NCBI GenBank assembly: GCA_039809865.1
Contig: JBDHVW010000011.1
Location: 31,470 to 95,469 of the forward strand
Length of the DNA stretch: 64,000 bases
Direction: 5' to 3'
Source: Vulcanimicrobiota bacterium
Lineage (GTDB): Bacteria > Vulcanimicrobiota > Xenobia > Xenobiales > QWHO01
The position numbers and the translations under genes are program-made. Below the pieces are notes generated by a model. It made no database searches. It was given only the letters and a program-made list of their open reading frames with translations, and was not told the DNA's origin. Shown piece after piece: positions 26,492 through 60,946 of the stretch. The stretch's first letter is position 1, and each line of letters begins with the position of its first letter.

Positions 26492-27400
26492 GTGTTGAAA
26501 TGGCCTGTAATCGTGAATCCGAGCTCGGGCGGCGGCAAGGGAAAAGCTGCCGAGGAAGTCTTGCAGGCATTCTGCGAGGCCCATGACGGCGAGCTCTTCT
26601 ACACCGAGCAAGAGGGACAGGGCACCGAGATCGCGCGCCGGGCCGTCGAGGCCGGCGTGGAGCGCATCGTGGTGGGGGGCGGAGATGACACCGTGCGGGA
26701 GATCCTGGCGGGAATGCTGCACGTCGAGAAGCCTCCCCAGCTCGGAATCTTGCCGCTGGGAACCTACAACAACTTTGCGCGCACGCTGGGTCTGCCCCTC
26801 GACCCGGCCCAGGCCATCGAGGTCGCGGTCAAAGGCCACAAGATGGGGGTCGACCTGGGTCAGGTCAACGGCGAGCGCGTTTTCACCGAGAGCGTGGGCG
26901 TCGGCTTTCAGGCCGACGCCTGGTCCCACAAGCCCGAAGTGGAGCCGGTGGGGATGCGGCGCCTGCTCGCGGGCGCCAGCATCGCGCTCGAGACCCTGGG
27001 CCACTACGAGCCGCACCTGTTCTATCTCACCATCGATGGGGCCGAGCAGGCGATTCGCGCCATGGATATCACCGTGGCCAACACCCCGGAGTTTGCCAAC
27101 GCGGTCACGGCCGCTCCCCTGGCCAGCGTGTCCGACGGCGTTCTCGACGTCTGCACGATCAAAGAGCTCTCCATGTTCGAGTTCCTGGCCGCCGTGCCCC
27201 TGATCTTCTCGGGACTGCATGCCTCCCTGATGTCCTCGGTCGACTACCACACAGGCAAGAAGGTGATCATCCGCGCGCCGGCCGAATCCCACCGCTGCCC
27301 CGTGCGCGTGGACAGCAGCATCGATCTGGCTCTGCCGGTCACCATCGAGGTCCTGCCCAGTCGCATCCAGGTGAGGGTTCCCCAGACGCAGTGGCCTTGA
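26492..27400 (+). CDS. DAGK_cat-family kinase (YegS/BmrU/diacylglycerol-kinase-like; same fold superfamily as NAD kinases)
   Basis: 'VIVNPSSGGGKG', 'VVGGGDDTV' (GGDG-like), 'LGILPLGTYNNFAR' (compare GTGNDFAR) and a C-terminal 'SVSDGVLDV'. GTG start. The stop overlaps the start of the downstream SIR2 gene by 10 bp. Confidence 0.8.
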   Translation: MLKWPVIVNPSSGGGKGKAAEEVLQAFCEAHDGELFYTEQEGQGTEIARRAVEAGVERIVVGGGDDTVREILAGMLHVEKPPQLGILPLGTYNNFARTLGLPLDPAQAIEVAVKGHKMGVDLGQVNGERVFTESVGVGFQADAWSHKPEVEPVGMRRLLAGASIALETLGHYEPHLFYLTIDGAEQAIRAMDITVANTPEFANAVTAAPLASVSDGVLDVCTIKELSMFEFLAAVPLIFSGLHASLMSSVDYHTGKKVIIRAPAESHRCPVRVDSSIDLALPVTIEVLPSRIQVRVPQTQWP

Positions 27401-41556: not shown

Positions 41557-42281
41557 TGCTGAGCTGGCTCGGCCTCAAGAAAGGCCCCGGCACGGACGAG
41601 CGGCGACAGATCGTCCGCCGCAAGGTCTATCTCGACGTGGTCTGCCACCTGCCGGTCAAAGACCAGCTCGACCGCGACTTCAAGGCGGTCATCACCGACA
41701 TCGGTCCCGGGGGGCTCAAGCTGCGGAGCTATGAGAACCTGACCAGAGGCGCGAGGTTCTTCGTGGAGTATCCGGGCGAGCTGCCCGGCGTGCCCTGGAT
41801 GCGCGTGAAAGTCGTCGTCATCTGGGCCGTCAAGAGCAAGAAGACCTTCGAGACCACCGTGGGCCTCAACTACGACGAGCCTCCCCAGAACATGGCCAAG
41901 TCGTGGGTCAAATTCGTGCTCGAAGATGCCGGCTTCACCCCTGACAGCCTCAAGGAAAGGCGCCAGAGCATCCGCGTGCAGGTGGCCACGCCCGGCCTTT
42001 TGCTGGCCGAGGACATGCAGGCTTCCGGAAAGGTCGTGGGCGTCTCCATGGGGGGTGCCCAGATCGAGACCGGCGACCCCATCATGAAAGGCCGCGAGAT
42101 CAAGCTGATCTTCCAGGGCGCCGAGTTCAAGGGACTGAGCTTCCAGGGGAAGGTCCTGAGCGTCATACCGGTCGAGAAGCGGTTCTTGCACTCCGTGTCC
42201 TTTTACGCGGTGGCTCCCGATCAGCGCAAAGTGCTGGCCGGCTACCTGCAACGCTATATGCGCGAGGTCGCTCCTAAGTAG
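41556..42281 (+). CDS. Tandem PilZ-domain protein, paralogous to the CDS at 7978..9174 (putative c-di-GMP receptor)
   Basis: 'RRQIVRRKV...DIGPGGLKL' and 'RRQSIRVQV...GVSMGGAQIE'. Shared 'VGLNYDE.P' segment with the 7978 gene. Confidence 0.75.
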   Translation: MLSWLGLKKGPGTDERRQIVRRKVYLDVVCHLPVKDQLDRDFKAVITDIGPGGLKLRSYENLTRGARFFVEYPGELPGVPWMRVKVVVIWAVKSKKTFETTVGLNYDEPPQNMAKSWVKFVLEDAGFTPDSLKERRQSIRVQVATPGLLLAEDMQASGKVVGVSMGGAQIETGDPIMKGREIKLIFQGAEFKGLSFQGKVLSVIPVEKRFLHSVSFYAVAPDQRKVLAGYLQRYMREVAPK

Positions 42282-42656
42282 CCCGGTTGCGGTGCTCCAC
42301 CATCAGGCAGCGGTCCTGGACCACGCCGATGCCGTTTTGCTCGAGCTCGCGCGCGGTCTCGTCGTGGCGTATGCCGGACTGGAGCCAGACGTAGCGGGGG
42401 CGGACCTGCAGCAGCTCGGCCTTGTGCCCGGGCACGTCCTCGCTGCGGCGGAAGACCAGCACCAGGTCCGGTGGGGGCTGCACCTCGCCCAGCGTCGCCA
42501 CCACGCCAGGTTGGCCCTCGAGGCGGGGATTGACGCCCACGAGCTCGTATCCGTGCGATTGCATGTAGGCAGGTACGTAGTGTCCGGCGCGCTCGGGACG
42601 ATCGGAGTAACCGATCACCGCGATACGCCGAGTGTTCTTCAAGATCTCATCGATCA
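42274..42656 (-). CDS. CoA-binding domain protein (YccU/CoA_binding_2 family)
   Basis: 'RRIAVIGYSDRPERAGHYV' (Rossmann GxS), 'ELVGVNP' and 'DLVLVFR'. Only the 3' ~380 bp of the 1063-aa reverse ORF looks coding. Confidence 0.75.
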
Positions 42657-42684
42657 TCCTCCGAGTTGGTTCGGTCCCGCGTGC

Positions 42685-42690
42685 TATAAT
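42685..42690 (+). promoter_or_regulatory. Candidate -10 element TATAAT immediately upstream of the hybrid kinase ATG
   Basis: 'gtgcTATAATccatctATG'. The hexamer ends 6 bp before the ATG, implying a leaderless or very short-leader transcript if it is used. Confidence 0.3.
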
Positions 42691-42696
42691 CCATCT

Positions 42697-45033
42697 ATGC
42701 GCCAATTGCTGCTTGCGATGTTGGAAGCCCATCCCGAGCCCCAGGCCCTGGTCGATCACGAGGGCCACATCCAGGTGGCCAATACGGCCTGGAAGAGCCG
42801 TTTCGGAGAGCGCATCCCACCCACGCCCGGCCTCCAGATGATGGACATGGGCGAAGGCACGCGCCTGGCCATCTGGAAGCCCGAGGTCACCCAGGTGCCA
42901 GGGTTCGTGTTGTCGCTCGACCGCCAGGGCAAGATCTTGTTCTGCAACTTGCTCCTGCCGGGCTATACCCGCGAGCAGGTCCTGGAGCACTCGGTGCTCG
43001 ACTTCGTGGGCGCGGCCTACCACGAGATGTTTCTGGGCAAGCTGGCCCAGGTCTTCGAGCAGTCGGAGTGGGTCTGCTACGAAGCCGAGGGCGTGGGGGC
43101 GCGGGGCTCGACCGCCTGGTATCAGGGCACGATCGGTCCGGTCCTCCGTGACGGCGAGGTCATCATGGCCAACCTGCTGGCCGTGGACGTCACCCACACG
43201 CGGGCCACCGGCGAGCGCCTGACCCTGTTCGAGCAGATCTACCACAACTCCAACGACGCCATCGCGGTGATCGATCTGGAGGGGAAATACCTCATGCAGA
43301 ATCACGCCCACGCGCAGTTGCTCGGCTACTCGGATCGCGAGCTGGACGGGCAAACGCCGTCCATCCACCTGGGCGACGAGGCCTTCGGGCAGATCGGCAG
43401 CGAGCTGGCGGCCCACGGAACCTGCCGCACGACCGCGATGAGCCGGGCCAAGGACGGCACCACTCGGCCGCTGGAGCTGTCCGCCTTCACGGTCTACGAT
43501 GCCGAGTGCAAGCCGGTCTGCTTCGTGGGCATCAAGCGTGACATGACCCAGCGGGAAACCATTCTGGCCGAGCTGTCCCGCGCCCGCGACGCGGCCTTGC
43601 ACTCGGCCCGGCAAAAGTCGGAGTTCCTGCGCAACATGAGTCACGAGATCCGCACCCCGATGAACGGCGTCATCGCCATGACCGAGCTTCTGATGGAGAC
43701 CGAGCTCGACGAGGACCAGCGCCGGCTGGCGGGCACGGTGCACTCCAGCGCCGAGTCGCTGCTGACGATCCTGGACGACATCCTGGACTTCTCCAAGATC
43801 GAGGCCGGATTGTTGAGCTTCCAATCCATCGAGTTCGACCTCGAGCAGACGCTGGAGGCCGTCCTGGCGCTCCTCCAGGGGCAGGCGCTGACCCGCGGGC
43901 TCGAGCTCTCGGGCCGGCTGGCCGAGGACGTTCCGCGGAAGGTGGTGGGCGATCCCGGGCGCCTGCGCCAGGTGTTGACGAACCTCATTGGCAACGCGCT
44001 CAAGTTTACCCGCCAGGGGTGGGTGCGCGTGCTGGTCACGCGCGCCGACGACAAGCTCTGCTTCGAGGTCTCCGACACGGGTCCGGGGATCTCGCGCGAA
44101 GACCAGGGCCAGCTCTTCTCTCCCTTCTTCCAGACCCAGGAGGGTCAGCGGGCCGGCGGCACCGGGCTGGGACTTGCGATCTCCCTGCAACTCGTCCGGC
44201 TGATGGACGGCGACCTCTGGGTCGAAAGCGAGCCGGGCCACGGGGCGACGTTCCGTTTCACGGCCCGCCTGGCTCCCTCGGCCACGACGGCCCCGCAGGC
44301 GGTGGCGCCCATTCTCGTGGTCGAGGACAACCAGGCCCAGCGTGACATCCTGTTGCAGAAGCTGCAGCACCTCGGCTGCGAGGCGGTCGGGACGGGCGAC
44401 CTCGACCCGGCGAGCCTGACCGATGCGGTCGAGCTCGTCTTGCTGGATCGCTCCCTGCCCGAGCGCGATGGGCTCGAGGCCTGTCGCGGCCTGACCGGCC
44501 GCGCCCGCTGGGTCCTGCTCTTGCCGGCCGGGCAAGCGGCCCCGTCCGAGGCCGAGCTGGCCGCGGCCGGGATCGCGGAGTGCCTGAGCAAACCGGTGGA
44601 CGAGACCGCCCTGGCCGCCTGTCTGACGCGGGCCGGGTTGCACCCCGACCAGTTGCCGACCGACCTGCGGGTGCTGGTGGTGGAGGACAACGCCATGAAT
44701 TCGGCGGTGATCCAGCGGCAGCTCGAGCGCCTGGGATTGCATCCGGAGCTGGCGGCCCACGGCGAGGAGGCGCTGGCCAAGGAAGGCCCCTTCGACATCG
44801 TCTTGATGGACTGCGAGATGCCCCAGATGGACGGCTACGAGGCCTCCGCCGAGCTCCGTCGCCGACTCGGCGACCGCGGGCCGGTCATCATCGCCATGAC
44901 CGCTCACTGCCTGCAGGGAGACCGCGAGCGGTGCCTGGAAGCGAGCATGAACGACTACCTGAGCAAGCCGGTGAAGACGGAGCAACTGCGCGAGATGCTC
45001 GAGCGCTGGTCGCGCACGCTGTCGAGGATCTAA
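42697..45033 (+). CDS. Hybrid sensor histidine kinase (multiple PAS - HisKA - HATPase_c - two REC domains), paralogous to the CDS at 9216..10814
   Basis: H-box '[10 protein letters not shown]'. 'LIGNALKFT', 'DTGPGIS', 'GGTGLGL'. Receivers: 'ILVVEDNQAQR...' and 'VLVVEDNAMN...IVLMDCEMPQMDG...YLSKP'. Confidence 0.85.
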   Translation: MRQLLLAMLEAHPEPQALVDHEGHIQVANTAWKSRFGERIPPTPGLQMMDMGEGTRLAIWKPEVTQVPGFVLSLDRQGKILFCNLLLPGYTREQVLEHSVLDFVGAAYHEMFLGKLAQVFEQSEWVCYEAEGVGARGSTAWYQGTIGPVLRDGEVIMANLLAVDVTHTRATGERLTLFEQIYHNSNDAIAVIDLEGKYLMQNHAHAQLLGYSDRELDGQTPSIHLGDEAFGQIGSELAAHGTCRTTAMSRAKDGTTRPLELSAFTVYDAECKPVCFVGIKRDMTQRETILAELSRARDAALHSARQKSEFLRNMSHEIRTPMNGVIAMTELLMETELDEDQRRLAGTVHSSAESLLTILDDILDFSKIEAGLLSFQSIEFDLEQTLEAVLALLQGQALTRGLELSGRLAEDVPRKVVGDPGRLRQVLTNLIGNALKFTRQGWVRVLVTRADDKLCFEVSDTGPGISREDQGQLFSPFFQTQEGQRAGGTGLGLAISLQLVRLMDGDLWVESEPGHGATFRFTARLAPSATTAPQAVAPILVVEDNQAQRDILLQKLQHLGCEAVGTGDLDPASLTDAVELVLLDRSLPERDGLEACRGLTGRARWVLLLPAGQAAPSEAELAAAGIAECLSKPVDETALAACLTRAGLHPDQLPTDLRVLVVEDNAMNSAVIQRQLERLGLHPELAAHGEEALAKEGPFDIVLMDCEMPQMDGYEASAELRRRLGDRGPVIIAMTAHCLQGDRERCLEASMNDYLSKPVKTEQLREMLERWSRTLSRI

Positions 45034-45548
45034 GCCGGCGCCACGCTGGGCTCTTCCAGCGGCATCAGGATGGGGTTCAGAGGAATGTTGAGGTAGCGGA
45101 TGATGCGCACCTCGGCCTGGGACTCGAGCTTCTCGAACTCGCCCCGCATCAGCTCCAGAGCCCGCTCCTCGGTAAAGCCGCCCGCGCCCGAGCCGAGCAC
45201 CGGGAACGCGACGGACTGAAAACCGTGCTGGTCGACCAGGGCCATGGCGTTGTGAATGCTGTCGGTGATGGAGCGCTCGCTGGCACGCCACAAAAGGTTG
45301 ATGCCGGCGACGTGGATGATGCCCCGGTAGGGCAGTTTCCCCGCGCCGGTCAGCACCGCCCCTCCCAGAGGGATGGGTCCGTGTTTGCCTACCTCGCGGA
45401 AGGGCTCGGTGCCCGCCTCGCGCTTGATGGCGCCGGCCACGCCCTGCGGTAACAAGAGCCACCATGGCAGAACATTCCGGTTCCAGGCGTTGACAATCAC
45501 CTCGACCGGCTGGTGAACAAGGTCTCCGTGGACGATCAGCACTTCCAT
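45030..45548 (-). CDS. Stand-alone macro domain protein (ADP-ribose-binding / O-acetyl-ADP-ribose-deacetylase-like)
   Basis: 'LIVHGDLVHQPVEVIVNAWN' (GD-x-x-x-x-D-x-I-V-N-A-x-N), 'GGAVLTGAGKL', 'IIHVAG' and 'VAFPVLGSGAGG' are canonical macro motifs. Confidence 0.8.
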   Translation of the reverse strand: MEVLIVHGDLVHQPVEVIVNAWNRNVLPWWLLLPQGVAGAIKREAGTEPFREVGKHGPIPLGGAVLTGAGKLPYRGIIHVAGINLLWRASERSITDSIHNAMALVDQHGFQSVAFPVLGSGAGGFTEERALELMRGEFEKLESQAEVRIIRYLNIPLNPILMPLEEPSVAPA

Positions 45549-45638
45549 AAGCTTGTTAACAAACATTTCATCTAACCCGCTGGTCCCCCCTCTATCCTCT
45601 GGGCGTACAGAAATACCCAGATTTTGAGGAGTCTCGTC

Positions 45639-46796
45639 GTGAACGTAACCGCCGCCACCCTGCCCGTGGTCCCGCAGGAGAAGAAGAAATGGACCATCCT
45701 GCAGTATTCGGCTGCCGATAACAACCTGCAGAGCTTCATGCTCGACGACATCGACGAGATGGAGAAGGTCGGGTCGGACGAAAACACCAATCTGGTCGTC
45801 CAGGTGGATACCGGCCGGCAAATGCGCCGCATCCTGCTCCAGCCCGACGCCAACAAGGGCATCGCCTCGCCCTCGGTCGAAGAGGGCGGCGAAATCAACA
45901 TGTCCGACCCCAAGACGCTGACCGACTTCATCGAGTGGGGCGTCAAGAACTATCCGGCCGAGCACTACATGCTGGTCATCTCCGACCACGGCGACGGCTA
46001 CAAGGGTGCCTGCCAGGACGTGAGCGCCGGCGGCTGGATGAGCCTCAAGGAGATTCACAAAGGCCTGGCCGACGCCGAAGCCAGGACCGGCGTCAAGCTG
46101 GACATCCTCGGCTTCGACGCCTGCAACATGGCCGGTACCGAAGTGGCCTACGAGCTCAAGGACCGCGCCAACTACCTGATCGCCTCGCAGAAAACCGAGG
46201 GCGGCGCCGGCTGGACCTACGACCAGTGGCTCGGCGGCAAGCATTCCTGGCTCGCCAAGGGCGGCGCGGCCGACGTCCAGAAGCGCCTCAGCCTGCGTGT
46301 CGACTGCTCGCCCGAGGAGTTGGCGCGCGGCATCGTGGCCGGCACGGCCGCCTACGACGACTGCATCCAGACCCTGTCGGCCACCGACCTCACCCGGATG
46401 GGTCAGGTCAAGAACTCGCTCGAGGAGTTCAGCAAGGCCATCCTGGCCACCGACACGTCGGTCTGGAAGCTCAAGAAGGTCACCTGGGGCACCCAGAGCT
46501 TCGAGGGCCACAAAGACGCCTATGACTGGGCGGAGCGCATCGCCGGGCACGAAGGCATTCAGGACCAGCGCCTGAAGTCGGCCGCCACCGGCCTGATGCA
46601 GTCGATCGACGACGCCGTCATCGAGGAGCACCACCACGCGTCGCACACCGGCGCGCACGGCCTGACCCTGGAGATCCCGGCCTTCTGGGCGCCGGGCGGC
46701 GAGTACAAAGAGCTCGCGCTGCAGAAGGACACGCACTGGGCCGACGCCCAGCGTCAGCTCACGCGCTGGTGGACGAAACCCCGCCCTATCGACTAG
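45639..46796 (+). CDS. Peptidase C11 (clostripain-family) cysteine protease
   Basis: GAGGAG RBS before the GTG. Catalytic His '[12 protein letters not shown]' and Cys '[13 protein letters not shown]'. Confidence 0.8.
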
Positions 46797-47274
46797 CCTC
46801 GAACTTCAGGCAGGCCGAGTTGATGCAATAGCGCAGGTTGGTTGGCGCCGGGCCGTCCGGAAAGACGTGCCCCAGGTGCCCGCCGCAGTTGGCGCACAGC
46901 ACCTCCGTGCGGGTCATCCCCCAGCCGGTGTCGGACTCCTCGGCCACGCTGCCGAGGCGGAACGGCTGCCAGAAGCTGGGCCAACCCGTCCCCGAATCGA
47001 ACTTGTGCTGGCTGTCGAACAGCACCTGCCCGCAGGCGACGCACAGGTAGCGACCCTCGTCGTGGTTGTTGTAGTACTTGCCCGTGAAGGCGCGCTCGGT
47101 GCCCCGCTGACGCAGGATGTGGAACTGCTGGGCGGAGAGCTGCTTCTTCCACTCCTCGTCGGACTTCTGGACCGGGAAGGTCGTCGTGCGCTCCTGCGCC
47201 TTGAGGTTGGCGTGGCGCTGCCACAGGAGAAACAGCCCGACGATGGCGATGACGATGCCGATTCTGATAAGCAT
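46786..47274 (-). CDS. msrB: Peptide-methionine (R)-S-oxide reductase with an N-terminal membrane anchor
   Basis: Two CxxC pairs ('CVACGQ' and '[12 protein letters not shown]') and 'GWPSF'. Classic MsrB (SelR) motifs. Confidence 0.9.
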
Positions 47275-47314: not shown

Positions 47315-50300
47315 CTACTCGGGGGGCTTGGGTCCCTGGCGATCCGGGTCGGCTTTGGTCAAGATCGGGCGGCGCCCCGTGCCGAAAGGCGTGGTGGGCG
47401 CTCCCTTCTGGCCTTCGCCGCTGTCGGGGGCGGGGAACTCGGTGCGCGGAGCGGCCCCGAACTCGGTGCGCGTGGAGCGGGCCGGGGTGGGAGCTTCCTC
47501 CTCGGTGTTGGGCACGCCCACGCCGCCGACCTCGTCCTCGAAGGAAACGGGTGGAGCGTCCTCAACCGGCTCGGAGCTGGGCGGCGGTGCACCCGGAGGC
47601 GTGGAAGCGCCGGTGCCGGGTCGCACGTTGGGCAGGGTGGGAGGCTTGCCGGGCAAGGAGCTCAAGGGCTTGTTGCCGCCGATGGTGGCTGCCGGAGGCT
47701 TGTTGCCGGTGGGCAGCCCGCCCAGCGGCTTGTTGCTAAAAGAGCTCAACGACGACGGCGGCTTGGGGCCACCGGGCGGAGTGCTGCTCAAGGGCTTGTT
47801 GACCGCCGACGTCAGGGGAGACGTCGCGGGAGTCGTGGGCGGCTTGACGGTCGGCGGAGTGACCGGGGCCGTGGGCGGCTTGACCAGCGGAGACGGCAGC
47901 CGGGTGGTCTCCACCAGGCCCGAGCTGGGCGGCTTGACCGAGCCGGACGGCGGCGGCGCGAACGACGGCGTCTTCACCGCCGGACCGACCGACGAGGGCG
48001 GGCCCGCCTCGAACGAGGGGGCGCCGGGGACCTCGATGGACGGCTCCACCGCGTGCTCGGGCATGGCGAACGCCGGGGTCTCGGAGGCGGCGTGCGCCCC
48101 CTCCTCTTCCTCGTGCGCGATGGGACCCTTGATCTGGGAGGTCAGCTCCATCGACGACGTGTCGGGAACCTGACCGCCCCACTGGTTGCGCAGCTTCTTG
48201 GCCAGCGAGGTGACGCGCTCGAGCAGGTTGCGGCCCGCCTCGGCCCGCTCCTCGCCGGGAGCCTCATCCAGCTCGAACGGATCCACGCCCAGGTCCTCGA
48301 GCTTCTTGAAGACCGAGGCCATCTCGGCCTTGGGATCGAGGAAGTAGAGCGAGCCGCGCAGGCGGATGAAACGCCAGCCCATGCGGGTCAGCACCACCTC
48401 GCGGTAAATGTCGGCCGGCAGCTTCTCGGGCGGATACTCGCTCTCGCCGTAGCACTTGATGGCCACGCGGCCACCTTTGCCCTCCACGATGAGATCGAGC
48501 TGGTAGGAGCCGACTGGCTGGTGGATGTTGACCCGATAGCCGGCCTTCCGCAGCCACTCGCCGACCTTCTGATGGAACTCGTAATCGCTCTTGGGACCGC
48601 CCACCACCCGCTCGCGCTCGAGGTCGGGCGAGGGCGGGGCCAGCGTCGACGGGTCCCGGGCGAAGCGGATCAGCATCTCGCGCAGGTCGCCCTGCTTGAG
48701 GTGCTTCATCGGATCGAGCGAGTGGACCACCCACATCTGGTCGCGGGCGCGGCTGGCGGCCACGTTGAAGCGCTTCACGAAGACGTCGGAGCGACGGATG
48801 GCCACGGGGCCCTCGCCCTCGGGCGCGTCCACCATCGACAGGAAGATCACGTCGCGCTCGTCGCCCTGGAACTGGGCGGCGTTACCGCACACGATGCGAC
48901 GCCGGCGATACTCGGTGAGCGGCAGATGCTGCACCAGCAGTCGATCGATCAGTTTGGCCTGGTCGTCGCCCACCAGCGTCACCACGCCCATCGTGCAGTG
49001 GGCATATTCCGGCTGCATGGTGGCCGCCACGAGCAGCGAGGCCACTTCGAGCGCCTCGGGCTCGTTGACTTTGCGGTCGGAGCTGGCTTCTTGCAGGTAA
49101 TGGCTGACCGTGGGCGGCGTGACCTTGACCCCGTAGCCCTCGCGCAGCGGCAACACCTCGTAGTCGTAGCAGAGCGCGTTCGAGAACGCGATGATCTCGG
49201 GCACCGAGCGGAAGTGCTCCAGCAGGCGCAGCGAGCCGCCAAAGGACTGACGCGCCAGGTCGTAGACGCTGGTGGTGCCGTCGTAAAGCTCGCGGTTGGG
49301 GATGTCGGAGAGGAACTCGTCCGACAGCGCCTTGGCGAAGTGTTGGGCCTGCCCCACGCCCTCGGGCGATACCTGCTGGTGGTCGCCCACGACCAGGACC
49401 TGCTTGCCCAGAGCCAGCGCCGTCAAACCGCGCAGGTCGCACTGGGAGGCCTCGTCCAGGATGACCACGTCGAAGGCCGACTGGCCCGGCTGGAAGCTTT
49501 CGGCCACGCGCGAGAGCGGCATGATCCAGACCGGCACCGACTCGCGGCACTCGGCCAGCGACTCGCGGGCGGTCGCGCGCAGCTCGGCGGCGCGCTTGCC
49601 GGTGCCCGCGCCGACTTTGCGCATCAGGTCGAGCCAGCCGACCAGGGCCTGCTGCTGGCGCACGCCGGTGCGTCGCAGCTGGGCGGCCCAGGCCTGGTTC
49701 TCGACGTAGCGCACCGAGGTCTCTTGCAACGCGTCGCGCAGGCGGGTGCACTCCTTGTGCAACTCGTCGAGGTCTTCCTGACCGATCGCTTTGAGGGCGA
49801 GCTCCCAGCTCTTGTGTTTCCAGGCGCGCAGTGGATCGCCCGGAGGCTTGCCCTGGTCGTGCGGCGGGATGCGGGTCTGCAGCGCCGCCGCCCAATCGGG
49901 GGCGGCCACGCGCAGGCGCTCCAAGAGGTCGCGCCGGCGCTCGTACTTCTCGACGTGGCGGGTGAGGTCGGCCACGCGGTTCCAGGCCGCCGAATAGGCC
50001 TGGGCGTCGCGATCGTTGGCCGCCTTCTTGATCTTGTAGCCCAGCGTGGTGGGATTCTGGGTGGACGGATTCTCGTTGAGATAGTCCAGCATCATCTGGA
50101 AGCGCGCAAAGAGCGGACGCCATTCCAGCTGGTCCATGCGGCGGTTGATGCCGGGTTCGACCACCTGCGCCAGCGCGGTTTTGATGCGCAAGAGCTCGCC
50201 GCCCTGCTCGGCGCTGGGCGCCACGGCCTCGAGCACCTTGTCCCAGGCCACCGAGCACTTCTTGAGAGCTTTCTCGATGGGACCGAAGAACTCGACCAGC

Positions 50301-52453
50301 CAGTTCAGCGCCAGGCGAATCTGGCGGGCGTACTGCTGGCACACGGCCTCGGGGTGCTCGCCCAGCTGATCCGACGAAGGCACGCCGCGGCCCGTCATCT
50401 GGCGGTCCCAGCGACGGCGCAGGCCTTCGCGGCGAATGCGCAACTGCAGTAAGGCGTGCAGGGCCTGGAAGTGGTCCAGCGTGCTGGGGCGCGCGCCGTC
50501 CACCCGGGCCGAGTCGAGGAACTTCTTCCAGTTGGGCTTGAGCAGCGTCTGCTGCCACCCGACCGAGCGCCCCGACTCGACCAGCGCGATCAGCGCGGTG
50601 CAAATCTTCTCGGCCTCGGCGTCGGGCATGTCGGTGTTGAGCACCGGCCCGGCCTGGAACACGCGCCGCTCGAGCGAAGCGGTCTCGGCCACGACCTTCT
50701 CGATGTAGTCGGCCAGGTCTTCCCACGACTGGCGGTACTCCTCGCCCACGCGCACCGACCAGGCGCAGTCGAGGAACCACGGCTCGGCGCCCGACAACGA
50801 CTCCAGCGCGGCCCGGGTGACCTTGAGCAGCGACTGCAAATCTTCGGGGTCTTGCTGGTCGTTGGCCCAGATGACGCCCGGATCGCTCGGGTTGGGGCCC
50901 AGGCGACCCTCCAGCTCCAGCATGTGGCGCAGCCGGTTCTCGGAGACGATGCGATCGAGCGGCGGCAGGTTGCCGGCCAGCTCCTTCTCGTCGATGGTGG
51001 TGAACTGGTCGTGGAAGCCGTACAGCTCGGCGATCTCCTCCACGCTGAGCGGAAGCGGCGCGCCGCCTTCGACCGAGCCGGGAATCCAGTCGTGGGCTCC
51101 CCGCCCCTCGGCCACCGCGCGAGCCGCGTTGACCGGGTGGATGGCCTCGCTGCCGAGCAGCCCTGCCGTGCTGTACTCCTGGCGGCACGAGTCGAGCAAG
51201 CGCTGCTCGGCCTGGCGGAGGCGGTCCTTGAGCTCGGTGCGCCGCCGCTCGTAGCTGTCGGCCAGCTTGGTCATCTCCTCGGGGTCGCTGTGGGTGAAGC
51301 GGTCCACGATGCCTTTGACCGAGATCTCCAGCTGCTCGCGGCTCTCCTGGTCGTTGTCGAGCACGCTGACGCAAAGCGGGCGGAGAGCGGGCGAAACCAT
51401 GCCGCGCAGCACGCGCAGGGCCTTGGTCGTGTGCGAGGTGACCAGCACGGTCTTTCCCTCGGCCAGCAGGTGGCCGATCAGGTTGGCGATGGTGTGCGTC
51501 TTGCCGGTTCCGGGCGGTCCCTGGACCAGCACGCAACCCATCTTGTCCAGACGTTCGCCGACGCGCTCTTGCTCGGGGTTGGATGGCAGCGTGTAGAGCA
51601 GCTCGAAGGGCCGGTCGGTCTGGCGACCCGGAGCCCGGTCCTCGATGCCGACGATCCGCACCAGAGCGGGCGGGAGCTCTTTCAGGTTGGGCAGGATCTC
51701 GAGGAAGCCCTCGATGGCTTGCGTCAGGCCCAGATGGCGCTGCCCCAGGTAAACCACGGCCTCGGACGCCAGCCAGGGGCGACCCTGGGGAGGCGTGGCC
51801 AGACCGCCAGGGCCGACGTAGTTGATGCCCAGGATCTTGGCGAGCCCCTCGAGCAGCACCTGAGAGCCCGCCTCGTAGGTGTGCGCCTCGAGGAAGCGTC
51901 GGCAGCTGCCGATGCGATTGCCGTCGACGCCGGACCAGTGCAGCACGGCGCTGTATAGCTCGGCGCCCCGGTCGGCCTCGCGCAGAGTGAACTCGGGGAT
52001 CTCGGGGTTGAAGTCGATCGACAGGCTCCAGACCGCGAGGGGATGGTAAACGGTTCCTTTGCCCGAGGTCCAGGCGAGCACGGCCTGGCCGAACATCAGC
52101 TCATAACGATCCGATTCGCGCTCGAGCAGGCGCCAGACTTCGAGCAGCCGGTCGAAGAGCTGACGGGCGCCGCGATCAGCCGGAGTGGCCGCTTCGGGCC
52201 GGGCCGGGGGAGTGGGACGGCGGACCTTGAGAACAAAATCGCTGGAAGGATCGTCTATACCCGGTGTGGGGACCGGGATGCGGCCGACCACGAGACAGGG
52301 GTGCTTGGGCAAGTCGGAAATGCGCAGCCCCCACGGGTGATCCTTGAGGTGGATCCTCGGTGGATGAGCTGCCTGCTGCAATCCGGACAAAAAGCGGAAT
52401 AGCCGGAAGATCCGGTCCCGCGCCAGGGCCTGTTCTTCGTGCGAGAGTGCCAT
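47315..52453 (-). CDS. Giant DUF4011-type protein: an Upf1-like superfamily-1 helicase (AAA_11/AAA_12) fused to a DUF559 (Vsr/PD-(D/E)XK-like) endonuclease domain, with a ~280-aa Pro/Thr-rich C-terminal tail
   Basis: Walker A 'VQGPPGTGKTHTI'. Helicase motifs 'VVILDEASQ', 'VVGDHQQVSP' and 'RIVCGNAAQFQGDERDVIFLSMV'. C-terminal 'VNIHQPVGSYQLDLIVE...VAIKCYGESEYP' is DUF559-like. A low-complexity KPP/TPP tail follows. Confidence 0.85.
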   Translation of the reverse strand: MALSHEEQALARDRIFRLFRFLSGLQQAAHPPRIHLKDHPWGLRISDLPKHPCLVVGRIPVPTPGIDDPSSDFVLKVRRPTPPARPEAATPADRGARQLFDRLLEVWRLLERESDRYELMFGQAVLAWTSGKGTVYHPLAVWSLSIDFNPEIPEFTLREADRGAELYSAVLHWSGVDGNRIGSCRRFLEAHTYEAGSQVLLEGLAKILGINYVGPGGLATPPQGRPWLASEAVVYLGQRHLGLTQAIEGFLEILPNLKELPPALVRIVGIEDRAPGRQTDRPFELLYTLPSNPEQERVGERLDKMGCVLVQGPPGTGKTHTIANLIGHLLAEGKTVLVTSHTTKALRVLRGMVSPALRPLCVSVLDNDQESREQLEISVKGIVDRFTHSDPEEMTKLADSYERRRTELKDRLRQAEQRLLDSCRQEYSTAGLLGSEAIHPVNAARAVAEGRGAHDWIPGSVEGGAPLPLSVEEIAELYGFHDQFTTIDEKELAGNLPPLDRIVSENRLRHMLELEGRLGPNPSDPGVIWANDQQDPEDLQSLLKVTRAALESLSGAEPWFLDCAWSVRVGEEYRQSWEDLADYIEKVVAETASLERRVFQAGPVLNTDMPDAEAEKICTALIALVESGRSVGWQQTLLKPNWKKFLDSARVDGARPSTLDHFQALHALLQLRIRREGLRRRWDRQMTGRGVPSSDQLGEHPEAVCQQYARQIRLALNWLVEFFGPIEKALKKCSVAWDKVLEAVAPSAEQGGELLRIKTALAQVVEPGINRRMDQLEWRPLFARFQMMLDYLNENPSTQNPTTLGYKIKKAANDRDAQAYSAAWNRVADLTRHVEKYERRRDLLERLRVAAPDWAAALQTRIPPHDQGKPPGDPLRAWKHKSWELALKAIGQEDLDELHKECTRLRDALQETSVRYVENQAWAAQLRRTGVRQQQALVGWLDLMRKVGAGTGKRAAELRATARESLAECRESVPVWIMPLSRVAESFQPGQSAFDVVILDEASQCDLRGLTALALGKQVLVVGDHQQVSPEGVGQAQHFAKALSDEFLSDIPNRELYDGTTSVYDLARQSFGGSLRLLEHFRSVPEIIAFSNALCYDYEVLPLREGYGVKVTPPTVSHYLQEASSDRKVNEPEALEVASLLVAATMQPEYAHCTMGVVTLVGDDQAKLIDRLLVQHLPLTEYRRRRIVCGNAAQFQGDERDVIFLSMVDAPEGEGPVAIRRSDVFVKRFNVAASRARDQMWVVHSLDPMKHLKQGDLREMLIRFARDPSTLAPPSPDLERERVVGGPKSDYEFHQKVGEWLRKAGYRVNIHQPVGSYQLDLIVEGKGGRVAIKCYGESEYPPEKLPADIYREVVLTRMGWRFIRLRGSLYFLDPKAEMASVFKKLEDLGVDPFELDEAPGEERAEAGRNLLERVTSLAKKLRNQWGGQVPDTSSMELTSQIKGPIAHEEEEGAHAASETPAFAMPEHAVEPSIEVPGAPSFEAGPPSSVGPAVKTPSFAPPPSGSVKPPSSGLVETTRLPSPLVKPPTAPVTPPTVKPPTTPATSPLTSAVNKPLSSTPPGGPKPPSSLSSFSNKPLGGLPTGNKPPAATIGGNKPLSSLPGKPPTLPNVRPGTGASTPPGAPPPSSEPVEDAPPVSFEDEVGGVGVPNTEEEAPTPARSTRTEFGAAPRTEFPAPDSGEGQKGAPTTPFGTGRRPILTKADPDRQGPKPPE

Positions 52454-52563: not shown

Positions 52564-54810
52564 TCACGCACTCGCAGGCGATGGAGAGGTCCGTGGATAG
52601 TCTCGTCCTGATCCAAGAAAGCCCTTATTGATCGCATCCACGCGGTTTCGGGGCTCGTAGCGCACCCCGTGGATCGAATCCAGCAGGCGCACCTGCGTGC
52701 CCGGATTCTCGCGAAAAAACCGCGCCAGGTCGCCGCGGGTGATCTGGTAGAGCTGACAGCTCTCCTCGGCTCGCGCTCCGAACTGGTGCCGCTCGACTTT
52801 CAGGAAGCGATCGGGCTCTCCGACCAGGCCGCCCCGCCCCACCAGCATGGAGTGCCCGTCGGGCGACAGTAAGCGCACGTGGCCCTGATCGACCAGAAAG
52901 TAGCGCGTCACGGGGTCGCCCGGCTTGAAAAGCCAGGCGCCGGCGGCGGCCTCGTCGTGGTTGAGCAAGATCGTGAGCTGGTTCTTCTGCAGAGCGGTCA
53001 TCTGGCGCAGCACGCGGTTGGCGTCGAACAGCTGCCAGGAGCCCAGCACGCGGTTATCCGCCAGGCGCCGGAAAAGGTCGGGAATCTTGGTGTCGCGGAT
53101 GAAGCCCAGGAAATCGCGCCGGTCCATCCAGAGAAGCTCCACGTCGGTGCGCGCCACCAGGTCGGCGGCGCGGGGCTCCTGGAGAATGAGAGCCCGCTCA
53201 CCGAAGTAGTCGTAACGACCAAAAATGTAGCGGTGCTCTGAATCGGGGGTGATCTCCACCTCGCCCGACATCACCATGTAGAAACGATCGCCTCGCTCCC
53301 CTTTGCGAAAGAGCACGTCGCCCGCATCCAGCTCCTGGTAGTGCGTCACCTGCAGGAACTCGTGGGCGCGCTCGAGCGGCATGCTGCGGAACATGTCGAT
53401 GTGCGCCAGCACGTCCAGCATCTTCTGAGCCAGGCTGGTCTGGGGAGGCTCCACCGGGATCTCGATGGTGCGCTCGGGCCCGGGCGGAGCCAGGCGCAGG
53501 CCCTGGTCGGTGGGGATGGCCGACTCGGAGACGTGCATCAGGTAGAGCCGCGCCTTGACCTCCTCGGGCAGCGCCGCCAGGACTTCGATGGGCGTGTGGA
53601 TGGGCGGGACGCCGGCTTCGTGGAACAGCACGTCCAGGTGCCAGGGGAAATCGAGCAGAGCCTGCTTGCGCTCCTGGCTGAGATAGCCCTGGGTGTGCAG
53701 GTCGCCCAGGCGCACCGGGTCATAGAGCGTGTCGCAGCTGTAGGCGAAGCCCTTGCCCTGGTACTCCACATGGAATCCCAGCGTGGGGATGGGATGGAAC
53801 GTGTAGTGGAACGTGAACATCGCGCCGCCGATGCGCAGCGGTTGCCCGATGATCACCGGCCGGAAAGCAAAAAGGCTGCGCAACTCGGCCCGGGTAAAAT
53901 CGGTCAGAGCGGAATACTTGGTGAGGAAGCTCTGCATCACGGTCTCGGTCGTGTGCAGCCGCACGCGCCCTTCTTCCAGGAGCTTCTGCATCGTGCCGGA
54001 GTCGTGGTCGGCGTGGCAGTGGGTCAGCACCACGTCCTGGATAAGCCGATTGTTGATTCCATTGGCTTTCAGCCAGGCCGTGGCGTTGACCGGAGGGTCC
54101 ACCATGACCCCCTTCTGGTCTACCCACAGGATGAAGCCCGAGGTGGAGGTGGCGGCGTCGAAGCCGTGGCCGCTGCCGATCACGGTGATGCCGAACACGG
54201 GCGGCATCCAGAGCGGGTGGGCACATTCCTCCTCCGCGCGTGGCCGGGCGGAGCGGTAGCCGAACACCACCTCCTGGGTTTGCTCCCCCGACTGCACGCG
54301 GTAGGAGCTGGCCGCGACGCGCTCGATGACGTGCCCGTCGACCGCGATCCGGTCGTTCTCGTCGAACGTCTGGACCTTCAGGAAATGCTTCAGGCGCAGC
54401 TTGCCGAGCACCGGATCCTTCTTGAAGAACGACATCTCGCGCTCGAGGTCGGGAAATCCGGCCGATTGGCGGCCGTCGGGGAACTCGCGCTCGAGCTCGA
54501 GGCGGCGGGGTCCGAACAGTGCCTCGCAAAGCACCCTCAGAATGCGGCGCACCTGGCCCTTGCGGCACAACAGGCGCAACTTGCGGCGCTGCACGTAAAA
54601 GTTGTAGTAGAGCGGAAACTCGAGCTCGGCGGCACTGACCCCGGCCTCGGTGTCGAAGAGCAGATCGGGCAGCAGATACAGGTCTGGCACGCCCTCGGCC
54701 AGCTGCATGGTGTCCTTGATGGTCTCCGGATAGGCCCCCACCTGCATCCTGAGCCCTGGACCCGTAACCAGCAATCCTCCCCGGGGCAGCTCCTCGAGCT
54801 TAAGGAACAT
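52564..54810 (-). CDS. MBL-fold metallo-hydrolase fused to two cyclic-nucleotide-binding (cNMP/CAP-like) domains
   Basis: 'LTHCHADHDSG' (HxHxDH). Two cNMP-binding-like segments near the C-terminus: 'GDVLFRKGERGDRFYMVMSGEV' and 'GAWLFKPGDPVTRYFLVDQGHV'. Confidence 0.75.
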   Translation of the reverse strand: MFLKLEELPRGGLLVTGPGLRMQVGAYPETIKDTMQLAEGVPDLYLLPDLLFDTEAGVSAAELEFPLYYNFYVQRRKLRLLCRKGQVRRILRVLCEALFGPRRLELEREFPDGRQSAGFPDLEREMSFFKKDPVLGKLRLKHFLKVQTFDENDRIAVDGHVIERVAASSYRVQSGEQTQEVVFGYRSARPRAEEECAHPLWMPPVFGITVIGSGHGFDAATSTSGFILWVDQKGVMVDPPVNATAWLKANGINNRLIQDVVLTHCHADHDSGTMQKLLEEGRVRLHTTETVMQSFLTKYSALTDFTRAELRSLFAFRPVIIGQPLRIGGAMFTFHYTFHPIPTLGFHVEYQGKGFAYSCDTLYDPVRLGDLHTQGYLSQERKQALLDFPWHLDVLFHEAGVPPIHTPIEVLAALPEEVKARLYLMHVSESAIPTDQGLRLAPPGPERTIEIPVEPPQTSLAQKMLDVLAHIDMFRSMPLERAHEFLQVTHYQELDAGDVLFRKGERGDRFYMVMSGEVEITPDSEHRYIFGRYDYFGERALILQEPRAADLVARTDVELLWMDRRDFLGFIRDTKIPDLFRRLADNRVLGSWQLFDANRVLRQMTALQKNQLTILLNHDEAAAGAWLFKPGDPVTRYFLVDQGHVRLLSPDGHSMLVGRGGLVGEPDRFLKVERHQFGARAEESCQLYQITRGDLARFFRENPGTQVRLLDSIHGVRYEPRNRVDAINKGFLGSGRDYPRTSPSPASA

Positions 54811-55711
54811 TGCCCGCTACCTTCTGGGTGGACAAAAGGAGTTCCCCCACCCGTCGCACGGCCTGTTGAAGGCGTTGCTCGAAGTCTCCCCGGATGAGAG
54901 CGGGCCGCCGGGAAGCATACTCGGCCTGGAACAGCGCCAGGAACTCCTCACGCCGATGAGGCTGGTCGCGCTGCGGATCGGGCACCCAGGGCACGTCCAC
55001 ATCGCAAAGCAGCGTCAGGGCATAGTTTTGCTCGGGCAGCTCGGGTGCCTGGCCGAAGAAATGGCGACTCCAGATGCGTGTCGTCGTCAGATCGCTATCG
55101 CAGAAGAGAAGGCGGTTGGCCTGGCCGGCCAGGGCCTCCTCGCTGGCCCGCTGACCGAGAGCGATGAGCGGGATGTCCTCGACCAGGCAAATCGCACTGT
55201 TCTCGCGCCGAGCGTTCCGCCAGTCCAGAAAGCCGCGGGCATATTCAGGCACCCACAGGGTTTCGAAATGCTCGGCCAGCTGGCGCGCCAGCGTGGTCTT
55301 GCCGGTCGACTCCGGACCCACGATCGCCACGCGCAGGCAGTAGTGCCGGCGCACGCAAGGCGGCAGGAATTGCCAGTGACCGTAAGGGTCGTCGCGGACG
55401 GCCGTGCCCGAGACGGCGAAACGCTCGCGGCCCGGATCGACCGGGACGTGCCTCGCCCCCAGGCGGCGGGCGAGCTCCTCGCCGTAATCCTCCGAGGTAA
55501 AGACCAGGTCGAGCGGCTCGGGCACCAGGCGTCGGAGGCTGGCCTGCCAGAGCTCCCAGAAATCGGGGTGCTCGTGGGGGTAGCTGGGGTTCTCCTCGGT
55601 GTGGTGGCGCACATCGGCGTAGGGAGCCAGCTCGCGAACCCAGGCGTGGCGAAGGTCGCCGGTGAGGGGCTCGCCCGGCAGGCTGGCCACCACGACGATC
55701 AGCTCGTCCAC
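54800..55711 (-). CDS. NadR-like protein: a degenerate nucleotidyltransferase N-domain plus a P-loop nicotinamide-riboside-kinase-like C-domain
   Basis: P-loop 'IVGPESTGKTTLARQLAEHF' (compare NadR GGESSGKST). An upstream 'VSGTAVRDD' resembles the ISSTxIR motif, but no HxGH is present. Confidence 0.55.
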   Translation of the reverse strand: MDELIVVVASLPGEPLTGDLRHAWVRELAPYADVRHHTEENPSYPHEHPDFWELWQASLRRLVPEPLDLVFTSEDYGEELARRLGARHVPVDPGRERFAVSGTAVRDDPYGHWQFLPPCVRRHYCLRVAIVGPESTGKTTLARQLAEHFETLWVPEYARGFLDWRNARRENSAICLVEDIPLIALGQRASEEALAGQANRLLFCDSDLTTTRIWSRHFFGQAPELPEQNYALTLLCDVDVPWVPDPQRDQPHRREEFLALFQAEYASRRPALIRGDFEQRLQQAVRRVGELLLSTQKVAGNVP

Positions 55712-59368: not shown

Positions 59369-60946
59369 ATGGCTCGCCCCCATCCGGAGCTCGAAAATTT
59401 GCTCGAAGGCCTGCGGGCCGAGGGCACTTTTGTCTCCCAGGGGAACTTCACCATCGACCTCGTGCAGGCGCGCGAGAAGCTCAAGAAGTTCCAACTGCTC
59501 GACCCCTACCATTACGTGTTGCCGCTGGTGAGCGCGGCCGTCCTGGGGGGCGGGAGCCGTATGCTCTGCCGGGTCGAGCCGGCGCGATTCTCGATGGAGT
59601 TCGATGGTCTCGCTTTCACCCCCGAGGAGCTCGAGGGCATGTTCAGCGCGCTCCTGATCTCGTCCACGGTCCTGGGCCGCCGTCGCGTGGCCGAGCTGGC
59701 GGTGGGGATCAACGCCGCCCTGGCGCTCTCGCCCCGCGAGATCAAGCTGGACAGCCATGATGGCGAGCGCCGCGTGCTGGCTCTCTTTACCGCCCGCAAG
59801 CAGAAGGTCGAGGTCAGCGACCCGCCCGAGAGCACCCAGCCCTGGACCACCATCACCGTGCAGCACGCCCCCATGCGAGCGCTCTGGCGCAAGACCCAGC
59901 GCGATGCGCCCGAGGTGCAGGCCCTGCACGCGCGCTGTCGCCTGGCCCATCTGGAGCTTTCCATCAACGATACCCCGTTGCCGCGCACGATCGGCTGGGA
60001 GACCTCCCGTTGCCTGGTGGCCAGCTACCTGAAAGCGGGGGAGCCTCGCGCCGGTTGCGAGATCACCCTGGGCAAACTGCGGTCGCGCTTGTCACGCCTG
60101 GGGGATACGCGCGGCCCGTATGCGGCCGTGGTGTCGTTGGGCGGTGACGCCGCGCAAGAGGTGGTCTTCGTGCACCACGGATTGCTTTTCCGCCGGCCCG
60201 ATCTCAGTCTGGGCCCGGGGGCTCGCGCGGTCGTGTGGGCCCCCGAGCTCAAGCGCGACCTCTCGCAGAGCGGCGTCATCGAGGACGAAACGTTCCACTT
60301 GCTGCTCGAGCAACTGCAGCTCGAGGTCTTCGCCATGCTCAACCTGCTCGAGGGCAAGCTGGGCCAGCTCTCCGAGTGGTCCGACGCCGAGCGCCGCGAG
60401 GCCCTCGATCAACTCGAGCGCCTGGTCGGCTTCCGGGTGCGCCACGGCGACCATCCCGGCGCCCTCAAGCTCGCCCGCCGCCTGGTGGATGCGCGCGACC
60501 CCGACACGCTGGGCTACCAGTTCGGCGACTACATCCAGGCACTGCTCGAGGCGCGCGACCCGCGCAATTCTCCGGACGCCATCTCCCGGCGCTTCAGCGA
60601 GGTCCTGGGACCTCTGGCCAAGACCCACGGCGTGGAGGTGCGCCGGAACGTCATCGGCGCCCGCGACGACTCGGTCGTCTCCCAGTTCGCCTTCAAAGGC
60701 GCCTTCGCCCGGTGCGAAACCCTGCTGAACCGGCTTCTGGCCGTCGAAGAGCAGCTCTTCGGGCGACAGGACCCGCTGGTTCTGAGCCGGATGCAAAAGA
60801 TGGCCGAAGACTTCAAATTCAAGCGCCCCGCCCGGGCGCGCGAGTTGAACGAGGCGCTCGTACAGGCTCAAAAGCCGATGGAGATCGCTCTCGCCGAGCA
60901 GGCGCGCTATGTCGGCAAGCAGGTCAGCAAGGTCTCGCTGCGCTAG
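59369..60946 (+). CDS. Hypothetical protein whose N-terminal region is paralogous to the CDS at 6696..7946
   Basis: 'GNFTIDLVQAREKLKKFQLLDPYHYVLPLVSAAV' aligns with 'GFFTIDVMKALPKLSRHQLPMPSFYLLKWVQWAV'. Confidence 0.5.
   Translation: MARPHPELENLLEGLRAEGTFVSQGNFTIDLVQAREKLKKFQLLDPYHYVLPLVSAAVLGGGSRMLCRVEPARFSMEFDGLAFTPEELEGMFSALLISSTVLGRRRVAELAVGINAALALSPREIKLDSHDGERRVLALFTARKQKVEVSDPPESTQPWTTITVQHAPMRALWRKTQRDAPEVQALHARCRLAHLELSINDTPLPRTIGWETSRCLVASYLKAGEPRAGCEITLGKLRSRLSRLGDTRGPYAAVVSLGGDAAQEVVFVHHGLLFRRPDLSLGPGARAVVWAPELKRDLSQSGVIEDETFHLLLEQLQLEVFAMLNLLEGKLGQLSEWSDAERREALDQLERLVGFRVRHGDHPGALKLARRLVDARDPDTLGYQFGDYIQALLEARDPRNSPDAISRRFSEVLGPLAKTHGVEVRRNVIGARDDSVVSQFAFKGAFARCETLLNRLLAVEEQLFGRQDPLVLSRMQKMAEDFKFKRPARARELNEALVQAQKPMEIALAEQARYVGKQVSKVSLR

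Follow-up and report, generated by a model that had tools for sequence, protein, structure and literature searches.

A Upf1-like helicase with a degenerate Vsr-type nuclease domain in a Vulcanimicrobiota bacterium, from a large unnamed family related to anti-phage proteins

The gene described here lies on the minus strand of a 64-kb stretch of contig JBDHVW010000011.1, from a Vulcanimicrobiota bacterium. We call the whole stretch the window; positions are 1-based within it, and protein numbering refers to the amino acids (aa) of the 1712-aa product. This product joins a Upf1-like helicase to a nuclease-like domain in which conserved catalytic residues are replaced. A first, sequence-only reading had described positions 47315 to 52453 as one intact open reading frame (ORF), and this was confirmed: the frame starts with ATG and runs over 5.1 kb free of frameshift or stop. 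It aligns collinearly with over 100 homologues between residue 1 and about residue 1430, and the start codon and the single-ORF reading are therefore sound. The GC content around the ORF is 0.68-0.69, compared with 0.62-0.69 over the window. Around the gene we found neither a promoter-like site nor a terminator on the minus strand, and a search of the 64-kb window detected no Rfam family (at gathering score) and no tRNA gene. The parts of the gene are given below; invariant columns are those of alignment A1, which holds 35 sequences (the window protein and 34 homologues) whose occupancy is 0.94 or higher across aa 1-1280 and stays at 0.88 or higher as far as aa 1430.

47315 to 52453, minus strand: complete ORF, ATG start, 1712 aa plus stop codon (47315-47317), from the ORF list and its translation
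51605 to 52453, minus strand: N-terminal family-specific alpha/beta domain (aa 1-283)
51359 to 51604, minus strand: first segment of helicase domain 1A (aa 284-365), containing Walker A and motif Ia; Pfam AAA_11, AAA_30 and AAA_19, invariant A1 columns
51497 to 51520, minus strand: Walker A, GPPGTGKT (aa 312-319), placed by motif position and invariant in A1
49544 to 51358, minus strand: all-alpha insert of about 605 aa (aa 366-970), between helicase motifs Ia and II
48659 to 49543, minus strand: remaining helicase core (aa 971-1265), with motifs II-VI; Pfam AAA_12, motifs being invariant A1 columns
48284 to 48577, minus strand: Vsr/DUF559-fold nuclease-like domain (aa 1293-1390); Pfam REase_MTES_1575 (PF18741) at aa 1293-1385
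48434 to 48496, minus strand: degenerate catalytic motif (aa 1320-1340), with D1320 kept and K1333, Y1335 and Y1340 in place of the family E, D and H
47318 to 48163, minus strand: Pro/Ser/Thr/Gly-rich low-complexity tail (aa 1431-1712, 282 aa), 22% Pro, with repeated KPP and NKPL

The motifs of the helicase are all present. Pfam detects AAA_11 (aa 297-417, 62 bits) and AAA_12 (aa 1122-1243, 40 bits), as had been proposed, and the label of Upf1-like superfamily 1 (SF1) helicase holds because the closest solved relatives by sequence are Sen1, Upf1/Nam7, IGHMBP2 and DNA2. The three motifs read from the letters are present, GPPGTGKT at aa 312, DEASQ (motif II) at aa 1000 and VGDHQQ (motif III) at aa 1022, together with TSHT (Ia) at aa 339, QFQGDERD (V) at aa 1194 and FNVAASRAR (VI) at aa 1229. 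The Upf1-like SF1B set of motifs I, Ia, II, III, V and VI is intact, all of them invariant columns in A1. Upf1, Sen1 and IGHMBP2 are SF1B RNA/DNA helicases that have this motif set in common with the window protein and represent its nearest solved structures. They also carry an accessory insertion between motifs Ia and II, which in Upf1 and Sen1 is the regulatory 1C "prong". The window protein differs from them in the size of its insert (about 600 aa, lacking a solved analogue), in an unrelated N-terminal domain, and in the nuclease-fold domain appended to the helicase.

The insert is of near-constant length among homologues (632-642 aa), and an AlphaFold2 model built with a family alignment as input is almost wholly helical, with a predicted local distance difference test (pLDDT) score of 85. 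A fold search with the insert gave only generic coiled-coil matches. The N-terminal domain, modelled in the same way (pLDDT 83), has an alpha/beta fold with long beta-hairpins. Both regions are conserved in the family, and both models are confident. We searched for a solved structural analogue of both this domain, of about 290 aa, and the insert of about 600 aa, and found none for either. The N-terminal region had been called DUF4011-like. We reject this label: DUF4011 (PF13195) has no Pfam match in the whole protein at E<=0.01 nor in aa 1-295 alone at E<=10, and the model of the anti-phage protein Hhe, discussed below, misses the N-terminal ~970 aa. A search for DUF3320 (PF11784) gave no match in the whole protein either.

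At the other end, the linker between the helicase and the nuclease-fold domain is variable, and the tail is absent from most relatives (alignment occupancy 20-50%), being specific to the orthologue group of the window protein. The tail evolves fast, with 49-76% identity between orthologues, and the DNA under it contains no tandem repeat of note.

The nuclease-fold domain matches Pfam REase_MTES_1575 at 64.1-68.7 bits, above the gathering threshold of 38.2. This family was described as a "Novel Vsr-REase" with the Vsr restriction endonuclease fold, fused to an SF1 helicase (Anantharaman et al., 2013; PMC3710099). The DUF559 model itself remains below threshold on the window protein (14.3 bits against 20.6, E=0.039), so that of the Vsr/DUF559-like module first proposed the fold stands and the DUF559 assignment does not. 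A profile built from the nuclease domains of canonical family members matches the DUF559-type structure PDB 3HRL (E=9.5e-6), with which it shares the pattern D...ExDG..H. The family consensus of the nuclease motif is IDLVVEG...AIECDGDRYHP, and canonical members read YRIDLVVEG..RLAIECDGDRYHP. In the window protein the corresponding stretch reads YQLDLIVEGKGGRVAIKCYGESEYP: the conserved D...E-x-D-G...H active-site pattern is broken, with D1320 kept and K, Y and Y standing where canonical members carry the E, D and H that align with 3HRL. The segment that had been quoted as an endonuclease motif, DLIVE...VAIKCYGESEYP, is the exact stretch that lacks the catalytic residues, with K1333, Y1335 and Y1340 in their place. 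Beyond these three, the protein also differs at two residues that canonical members keep invariant (Q to E and E to T).

Among species-level relatives in GTDB genomes, the E-D-H combination is found in 57 of the 71 that could be scored. In the set of the 120 best homologues, 114 of 118 have a D or E as the second acidic residue. K-Y-Y is confined to the orthologue group of the window protein (the window protein itself, P0001-P0003 and L009, at 79-92% identity). Erosion is partial in relatives at 42-46% identity, where T, Q, R or K takes the place of the E, and Y, Q or another residue that of the H; their sources, where named, are Xenobia, Eremiobacterota, Vulcanimicrobiota and Armatimonadota. 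One member of the orthologue group, L009 (CAYYHB010000100.1), is labelled "uncultured Burkholderiales bacterium", yet it holds an 86%-identical orthologue with K-Y-Y and, as neighbours, the AAA_28 and metallo-beta-lactamase genes described below. This bin is probably mislabelled or contaminated, the other close relatives being named Eremiobacterota or Xenobia.

The domain as a whole has not drifted. Its identity to the orthologues is 95% and 98% (P0001 and P0002) and 84% (P0003), while by region the orthologues are 92-99% identical in the helicase, 42-81% in the linker and 49-76% in the tail. Because the nuclease-like domain is conserved among orthologues like the helicase, and unlike the linker and tail, it is retained. 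We read this as a fold kept under purifying selection whose catalytic centre has probably been lost, or has at least become very different. Since the three conserved nuclease residues are missing, "helicase-nuclease" probably misdescribes the activity of the window protein, which is probably a motor or sensor rather than a cutter.

The same evidence bears on whether the gene is simply decaying, as a defence gene on its way to a pseudogene after nuclease inactivation. Lost catalytic residues and a fast-evolving tail would fit such a relic; its 5.1-kb frame, however, has no frameshift or stop, the structured domains, the nuclease-like one included, are 80-100% identical in orthologues that are 79-92% identical overall, and the helicase motifs are invariant. 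With the ORF intact and each domain conserved, we reject the pseudogene reading as highly improbable.

The window protein is a full-length member of a coherent, large and unnamed family, defined on sequence by its N-terminal domain, a helicase with an insert of about 600 aa, and the MTES_1575 domain. A word-indexed protein search returned 6720 proteins at E<=1e-5, and the 120 best homologues are nearly all 1500-1750 aa long with the same Pfam set as the window protein. With a profile of the N-terminal domain, the number of matching clusters (50%-identity representatives) is 2588 at E<=0.001 and falls to 1787 at E<=1e-10 and to 646 at E<=1e-30. The domain is N-terminal, or nearly so, in the 150 best matches listed, most of which are proteins of about 1500-1800 aa; it is this agreement across many clusters that makes the family coherent. 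A scan of one genome per species showed a patchy distribution over more than 10 phyla, with members in Acidobacteriota, Planctomycetota, Bacillota, Chloroflexota, Myxococcota, Actinomycetota, Pseudomonadota, Gemmatimonadota, Saccharibacteria and others. The family is essentially absent from phage genomes, as 50,697 phage records yielded only two weak partial matches, and we reject a phage origin. Many relatives bear the JGI product name "very-short-patch-repair endonuclease". One relative, P0053, is 2926 aa long and has added Pfam matches to TerB, DUF533, sigma-70 region 4 and the C-terminal domain of the RNA polymerase alpha subunit, which means either a far larger fusion or gene calls that were merged.

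Beyond the family, relatives of the helicase-nuclease core occur on 191 plasmid records. We compared two of them, a 1576-aa protein of Acinetobacter baumannii p3ABAYE and a 1937-aa protein of the Sphingobium plasmid pMSHV that carries DUF3320. Both align to aa 284-1393 of the window protein, the whole helical insert included, at 27-30% identity, and their N-terminal regions are unrelated to its N-terminus. On these alignments, the superfamily is a shared core, made of a helicase with a big helical insert and an MTES_1575 nuclease, on which N-termini are exchangeable.

Several named or candidate defence families are related to this core. With PADLOC, the window protein matches PDC-S37 (160 bits, E=1.7e-47), MkoC (104 bits), Hhe (98 bits) and MkoA (82 bits). 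Against the NCBIfam models it scores 190.7 bits for ProA (cut-off 1500) and 139.2 bits for Hhe (cut-off 2000). Five other members of the family or superfamily also fall below both cut-offs, with ProA scores of 178-278 bits. As the window protein and these five relatives all miss the ProA and Hhe cut-offs, the family is neither of the two, and on its sequence matches it is related to ProA, Hhe, PDC-S37 and Mokosh yet is probably none of them.

ProA (NF058533, "anti-phage protein ProA") is the best-scoring named family. Aa 572-1422 of the window protein align to positions 914-1731 of the 1903 in its model, a match that takes in the latter half of the insert as well as the helicase and nuclease; the plasmid relatives align to it from Walker A onwards. 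The N-terminal region of ProA is unlike that of the window protein. A search of the literature for the source paper of ProA found none. Hhe (NF042953, "DUF4011 domain-containing anti-phage protein Hhe"; PADLOC PDLC02194) is likewise one large polypeptide in which an SF1 Upf1-like helicase precedes a Vsr/MTES_1575 domain, and its published architecture is reportedly that of a Upf1-like helicase with a Vsr-type nuclease. Aa 972-1403, that is the second helicase half and the nuclease, align to positions 1260-1698 of the Hhe model, while the ~970 N-terminal aa do not. The window protein differs from Hhe in having neither DUF4011 nor DUF3320 nor the catalytic residues of the nuclease; many Hhe-like proteins have a C-terminal DUF3320 (a winged helix-turn-helix domain) where the window protein has its Pro-rich tail. 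PDC-S37, the top PADLOC match, aligns over aa 967-1404 (model positions 911-1356 of 1550), a match limited to the C-terminal core of helicase half and nuclease. PDC systems are candidates, and we found no mention of PDC-S37 in a search of the literature.

The protein had also been likened to type II Mokosh with a different nuclease. Type II Mokosh (MkoC) does combine a Upf1-like (COG1112) helicase and a nuclease in one protein, and this part of the comparison stands: the window protein is one polypeptide with a Upf1-like helicase, a nuclease fold and relatives in defence. The other part does not. Mokosh is defined by a C-terminal nuclease of the phospholipase D (PLD) family; no PLD family matches the window protein in Pfam at E<=0.01, its C-terminal domain being REase_MTES_1575, and the MkoC model matches the helicase only (aa 830-1269). 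Because Mokosh needs the PLD nuclease, the Mokosh matches are limited to the helicase, and the ProA model covers the same helicase-nuclease core, we do not regard the protein as a new twist on Mokosh.

In other phyla, several members of the family or superfamily are found in the company of defence genes. Mrr_cat, with 4 occurrences, is the most frequent Pfam family in the 131 genes that lie no more than two positions from the helicase. ResIII (3), N6_Mtase/HsdM, PglZ and GmrSD_N (2 each) and BrxL (1) also occur there, together with ordinary families (HAD-type hydrolases, 3) and with transposases. PADLOC names for neighbours of family members include DrmD, PglZ, a type I methyltransferase, BrxH and DrmA. 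This enrichment is suggestive, being a raw count taken without a matched background set. PglX-PglZ stand beside the gene in Virgibacillus litoralis (L055) and Exiguobacterium abrahamii (L059), with an SNF2 helicase too in Virgibacillus, and on p3ABAYE (L090) pglZ-brxL are followed by the relative. These three independent relatives next to bacteriophage exclusion (BREX) genes, each with an intact motif, suggest a recurrent relationship with BREX as accessory or neighbour. On pMSHV the order is methyltransferase, restriction endonuclease, relative, AbiEi and AbiEii, and a relative on a 2-Mb contig lies near PemK, HNH, methyltransferase, PIN and AbiE genes and transposases. The defence-adjacent members taken as examples carry intact E-D-H. 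We also clustered about 470 neighbours of 80 loci in search of a conserved partner gene, and no family occurred in more than 5 loci.

Could the window protein then be, like Hhe, ProA or type II Mokosh, an active anti-phage helicase-nuclease in one polypeptide, whose helicase loads on phage nucleic acid and whose C-terminal domain cleaves it? The matches to PADLOC and NCBIfam defence models speak for it, as do the relatives on plasmids and in islands of BREX, restriction-modification and Abi genes, the lack of a conserved partner gene, which is typical of single-gene systems, and the scatter of the family across more than 10 phyla. All this must be set against K1333, Y1335 and Y1340 in place of the conserved E, D and H, scores 8-13 times below the curated ProA and Hhe cut-offs, the lack of a detected PLD or DUF4011 domain, and a position that is fixed in the lineage with no defence genes among the ten nearest genes. 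We consider this explanation unlikely for the window protein.

That position is best seen from the neighbouring genes:

46786 to 47274, minus strand: MsrB (SelR) gene, Pfam SelR at E=2.9e-50, 40 bp downstream of the helicase gene and kept in the orthologue locus
52564 to 54810, minus strand: metallo-beta-lactamase protein with two cNMP-binding domains by Pfam, 748 aa, directly upstream of the helicase gene
54800 to 55711, minus strand: AAA_28 ATPase gene by Pfam, overlapping the metallo-beta-lactamase gene by 11 nt

The other neighbours on the same strand encode a Macro-domain protein, a protein ending in a CoA-binding domain and a YndJ-like protein. Among the ten nearest genes PADLOC gave no defence-system match, only weak matches to cNMP-binding domains of Pycsar proteins. 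The metallo-beta-lactamase protein could be, from its domains, a cyclic-nucleotide phosphodiesterase or sensor; an orthologue of it is on record as matching Pfam Anti-Pycsar_Apyc1. The gene order YndJ, AAA_28, metallo-beta-lactamase, helicase, MsrB is kept in orthologue loci, and AAA_28 followed by the metallo-beta-lactamase gene is present in L001, L002 and L009. A functional link between the latter protein and the helicase is nevertheless putative, because the syntenic genomes are close relatives. An 86%-identical orthologue with the same neighbours was found in assemblies GCA_013328915.1 and GCA_013328955.1. The first of these also has a 45%-identical paralogue at a separate locus (L003, L004), which is conserved in a Candidatus Xenobia assembly; synteny at this paralogue locus is shallow, two proteins there being 93-100% identical. 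A deeper linkage exists in another clade, in which P0013, P0030 and P0024 are mutually 77-81% identical and P0045 is only 49% identical to them, and all four directly follow a Peptidase_M3 gene. At the loci of this Peptidase_M3 (pepF-like) clade (L005, L006 and L091-L093), Hpt and YceI genes usually lie downstream. That relatives only 49% identical both follow the Peptidase_M3 gene suggests that, in the lineage of this clade, the gene has been inherited vertically at one fixed position.

The sequence-only reading had proposed to look for the gene in defence islands, and had regarded conserved housekeeping surroundings as evidence against a role in defence. Co-location with BREX, restriction-modification and Abi genes is found for family members in other phyla but not for the window gene; conversely, conserved contexts unrelated to defence are found in this lineage but not for the family in other phyla.

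Such contexts would suit a helicase that has been domesticated for housekeeping as a bacterial equivalent of Upf1, Sen1 or IGHMBP2, acting in RNA quality control, in the resolution of R-loops or of transcription-replication conflicts, or in repair, with no role left in conflicts with mobile elements. The stable syntenic position, ordinary neighbours (MsrB and signalling proteins), at least two paralogues in one genome, the lineage-specific gain of a Pro-rich disordered tail, and a helicase that is intact while the nuclease site is eroded all argue for it. At the loci examined, though, no replication, repair, transcription or RNA-decay genes lie alongside, and the family is patchy rather than universal, even within bacteria. 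This leaves a purely housekeeping role a doubtful one.

The other large genes of the window are signalling or metabolic, among them a GGDEF-EAL protein, a hybrid histidine kinase, a ferrochelatase and an SPFH protein. Several gene calls in the window deserve caution. Two ORFs in 42274-46736 (minus strand) overlap by 436 nt, one of 1063 aa whose sole Pfam match is a C-terminal CoA_binding_2 and one of 568 aa that ends in a Macro domain; in each of them a long N-terminal region is free of Pfam matches, and at least one of the two start codons is probably over-extended. In the 731-aa ORF at 15851-18046 (plus strand), ferrochelatase is matched at aa 406-695 only, which means either an over-extended start or an unusual N-terminal extension of about 400 aa. 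Large ORFs with no Pfam match also exist, for example at 42-2150, 21667-23505, 27244-28812, 33920-35521 and 59369-60946, and some of these may be spurious opposite-strand ORFs in high-GC DNA.

We favour, with a probability of roughly 0.55, the explanation that the window protein is a member of the superfamily akin to Hhe, ProA and PDC-S37 that has turned into a nuclease-dead, ATP-driven motor encoded by a stable chromosomal paralogue. On single-stranded nucleic acid it would work 5'->3', driven by ATP, as a translocase or helicase of the SF1B type. The helical insert would sit where Upf1 and Sen1 carry their regulatory prong, and together with the N-terminal domain it may regulate loading or sense the substrate. 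The nuclease-like domain would serve as a structural module, or one that binds or guides nucleic acid, and would not cut; such a non-cutting module has a precedent in RecBCD, where the nuclease-like domain of RecC is inactivated. Canonical members elsewhere are probably single-protein helicase-nucleases in defence whose action ends in DNA cleavage. In the Vulcanimicrobiota (Eremiobacterota) lineage, the gene would have become a stable chromosomal paralogue whose cleavage step was lost or is supplied by another protein. The window copy may thus still take part in defence through another effector, or may have a role in the cell.

Several points weigh against this explanation. The loss of nuclease activity is read from sequence alone. 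An altered site is conceivable and may exist, given that D1320 and the conserved E1324 are still present and that K1333 points towards the old active site; catalytic residues have been relocated in some PD-(D/E)XK enzymes. The E and H positions vary in the tier of about 45% identity, and they may perhaps be less important chemically here than in DUF559. As for the locus, synteny with the closest orthologues (86-92% identical) says little by itself, the sole deep synteny is the Peptidase_M3 linkage, which belongs to a sister clade and not to the window gene, and defence proteins can be chromosomal and lineage-fixed.

A more far-reaching and rather tentative proposal is that Vulcanimicrobiota (Eremiobacterota/Xenobia) turned a defence-type helicase-nuclease into stably inherited, nuclease-eroded paralogues that act as surveillance motors like Upf1 and Sen1, or as non-cutting sensor subunits that pass substrates to another effector. 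On this proposal each genome would hold at least two such paralogues, with one clade fixed behind pepF and that of the window protein bearing the Pro-rich disordered tail. If true, it would mean that a bacterial immune helicase-nuclease was repurposed after the loss of its nuclease.

What is new here is a distinct and sizeable family with its own N-terminal domain and, in this lineage, a nuclease-eroded, syntenic and tailed variant of it. For annotation, the names DUF4011, Hhe and Mokosh should be avoided, and an active endonuclease should not be presumed. Large helicase-nuclease fusions recur as immune proteins of bacteria, and to our knowledge the mechanisms of Hhe, ProA and Mokosh are largely unknown. 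Members that have kept the active site and have BREX or restriction-modification genes next to them lend themselves well to testing. The window copy is a natural "nuclease-dead" allele under selection, and its comparison with canonical members could separate the roles of helicase or sensor from those of the nuclease, and could reveal how immune proteins get repurposed.

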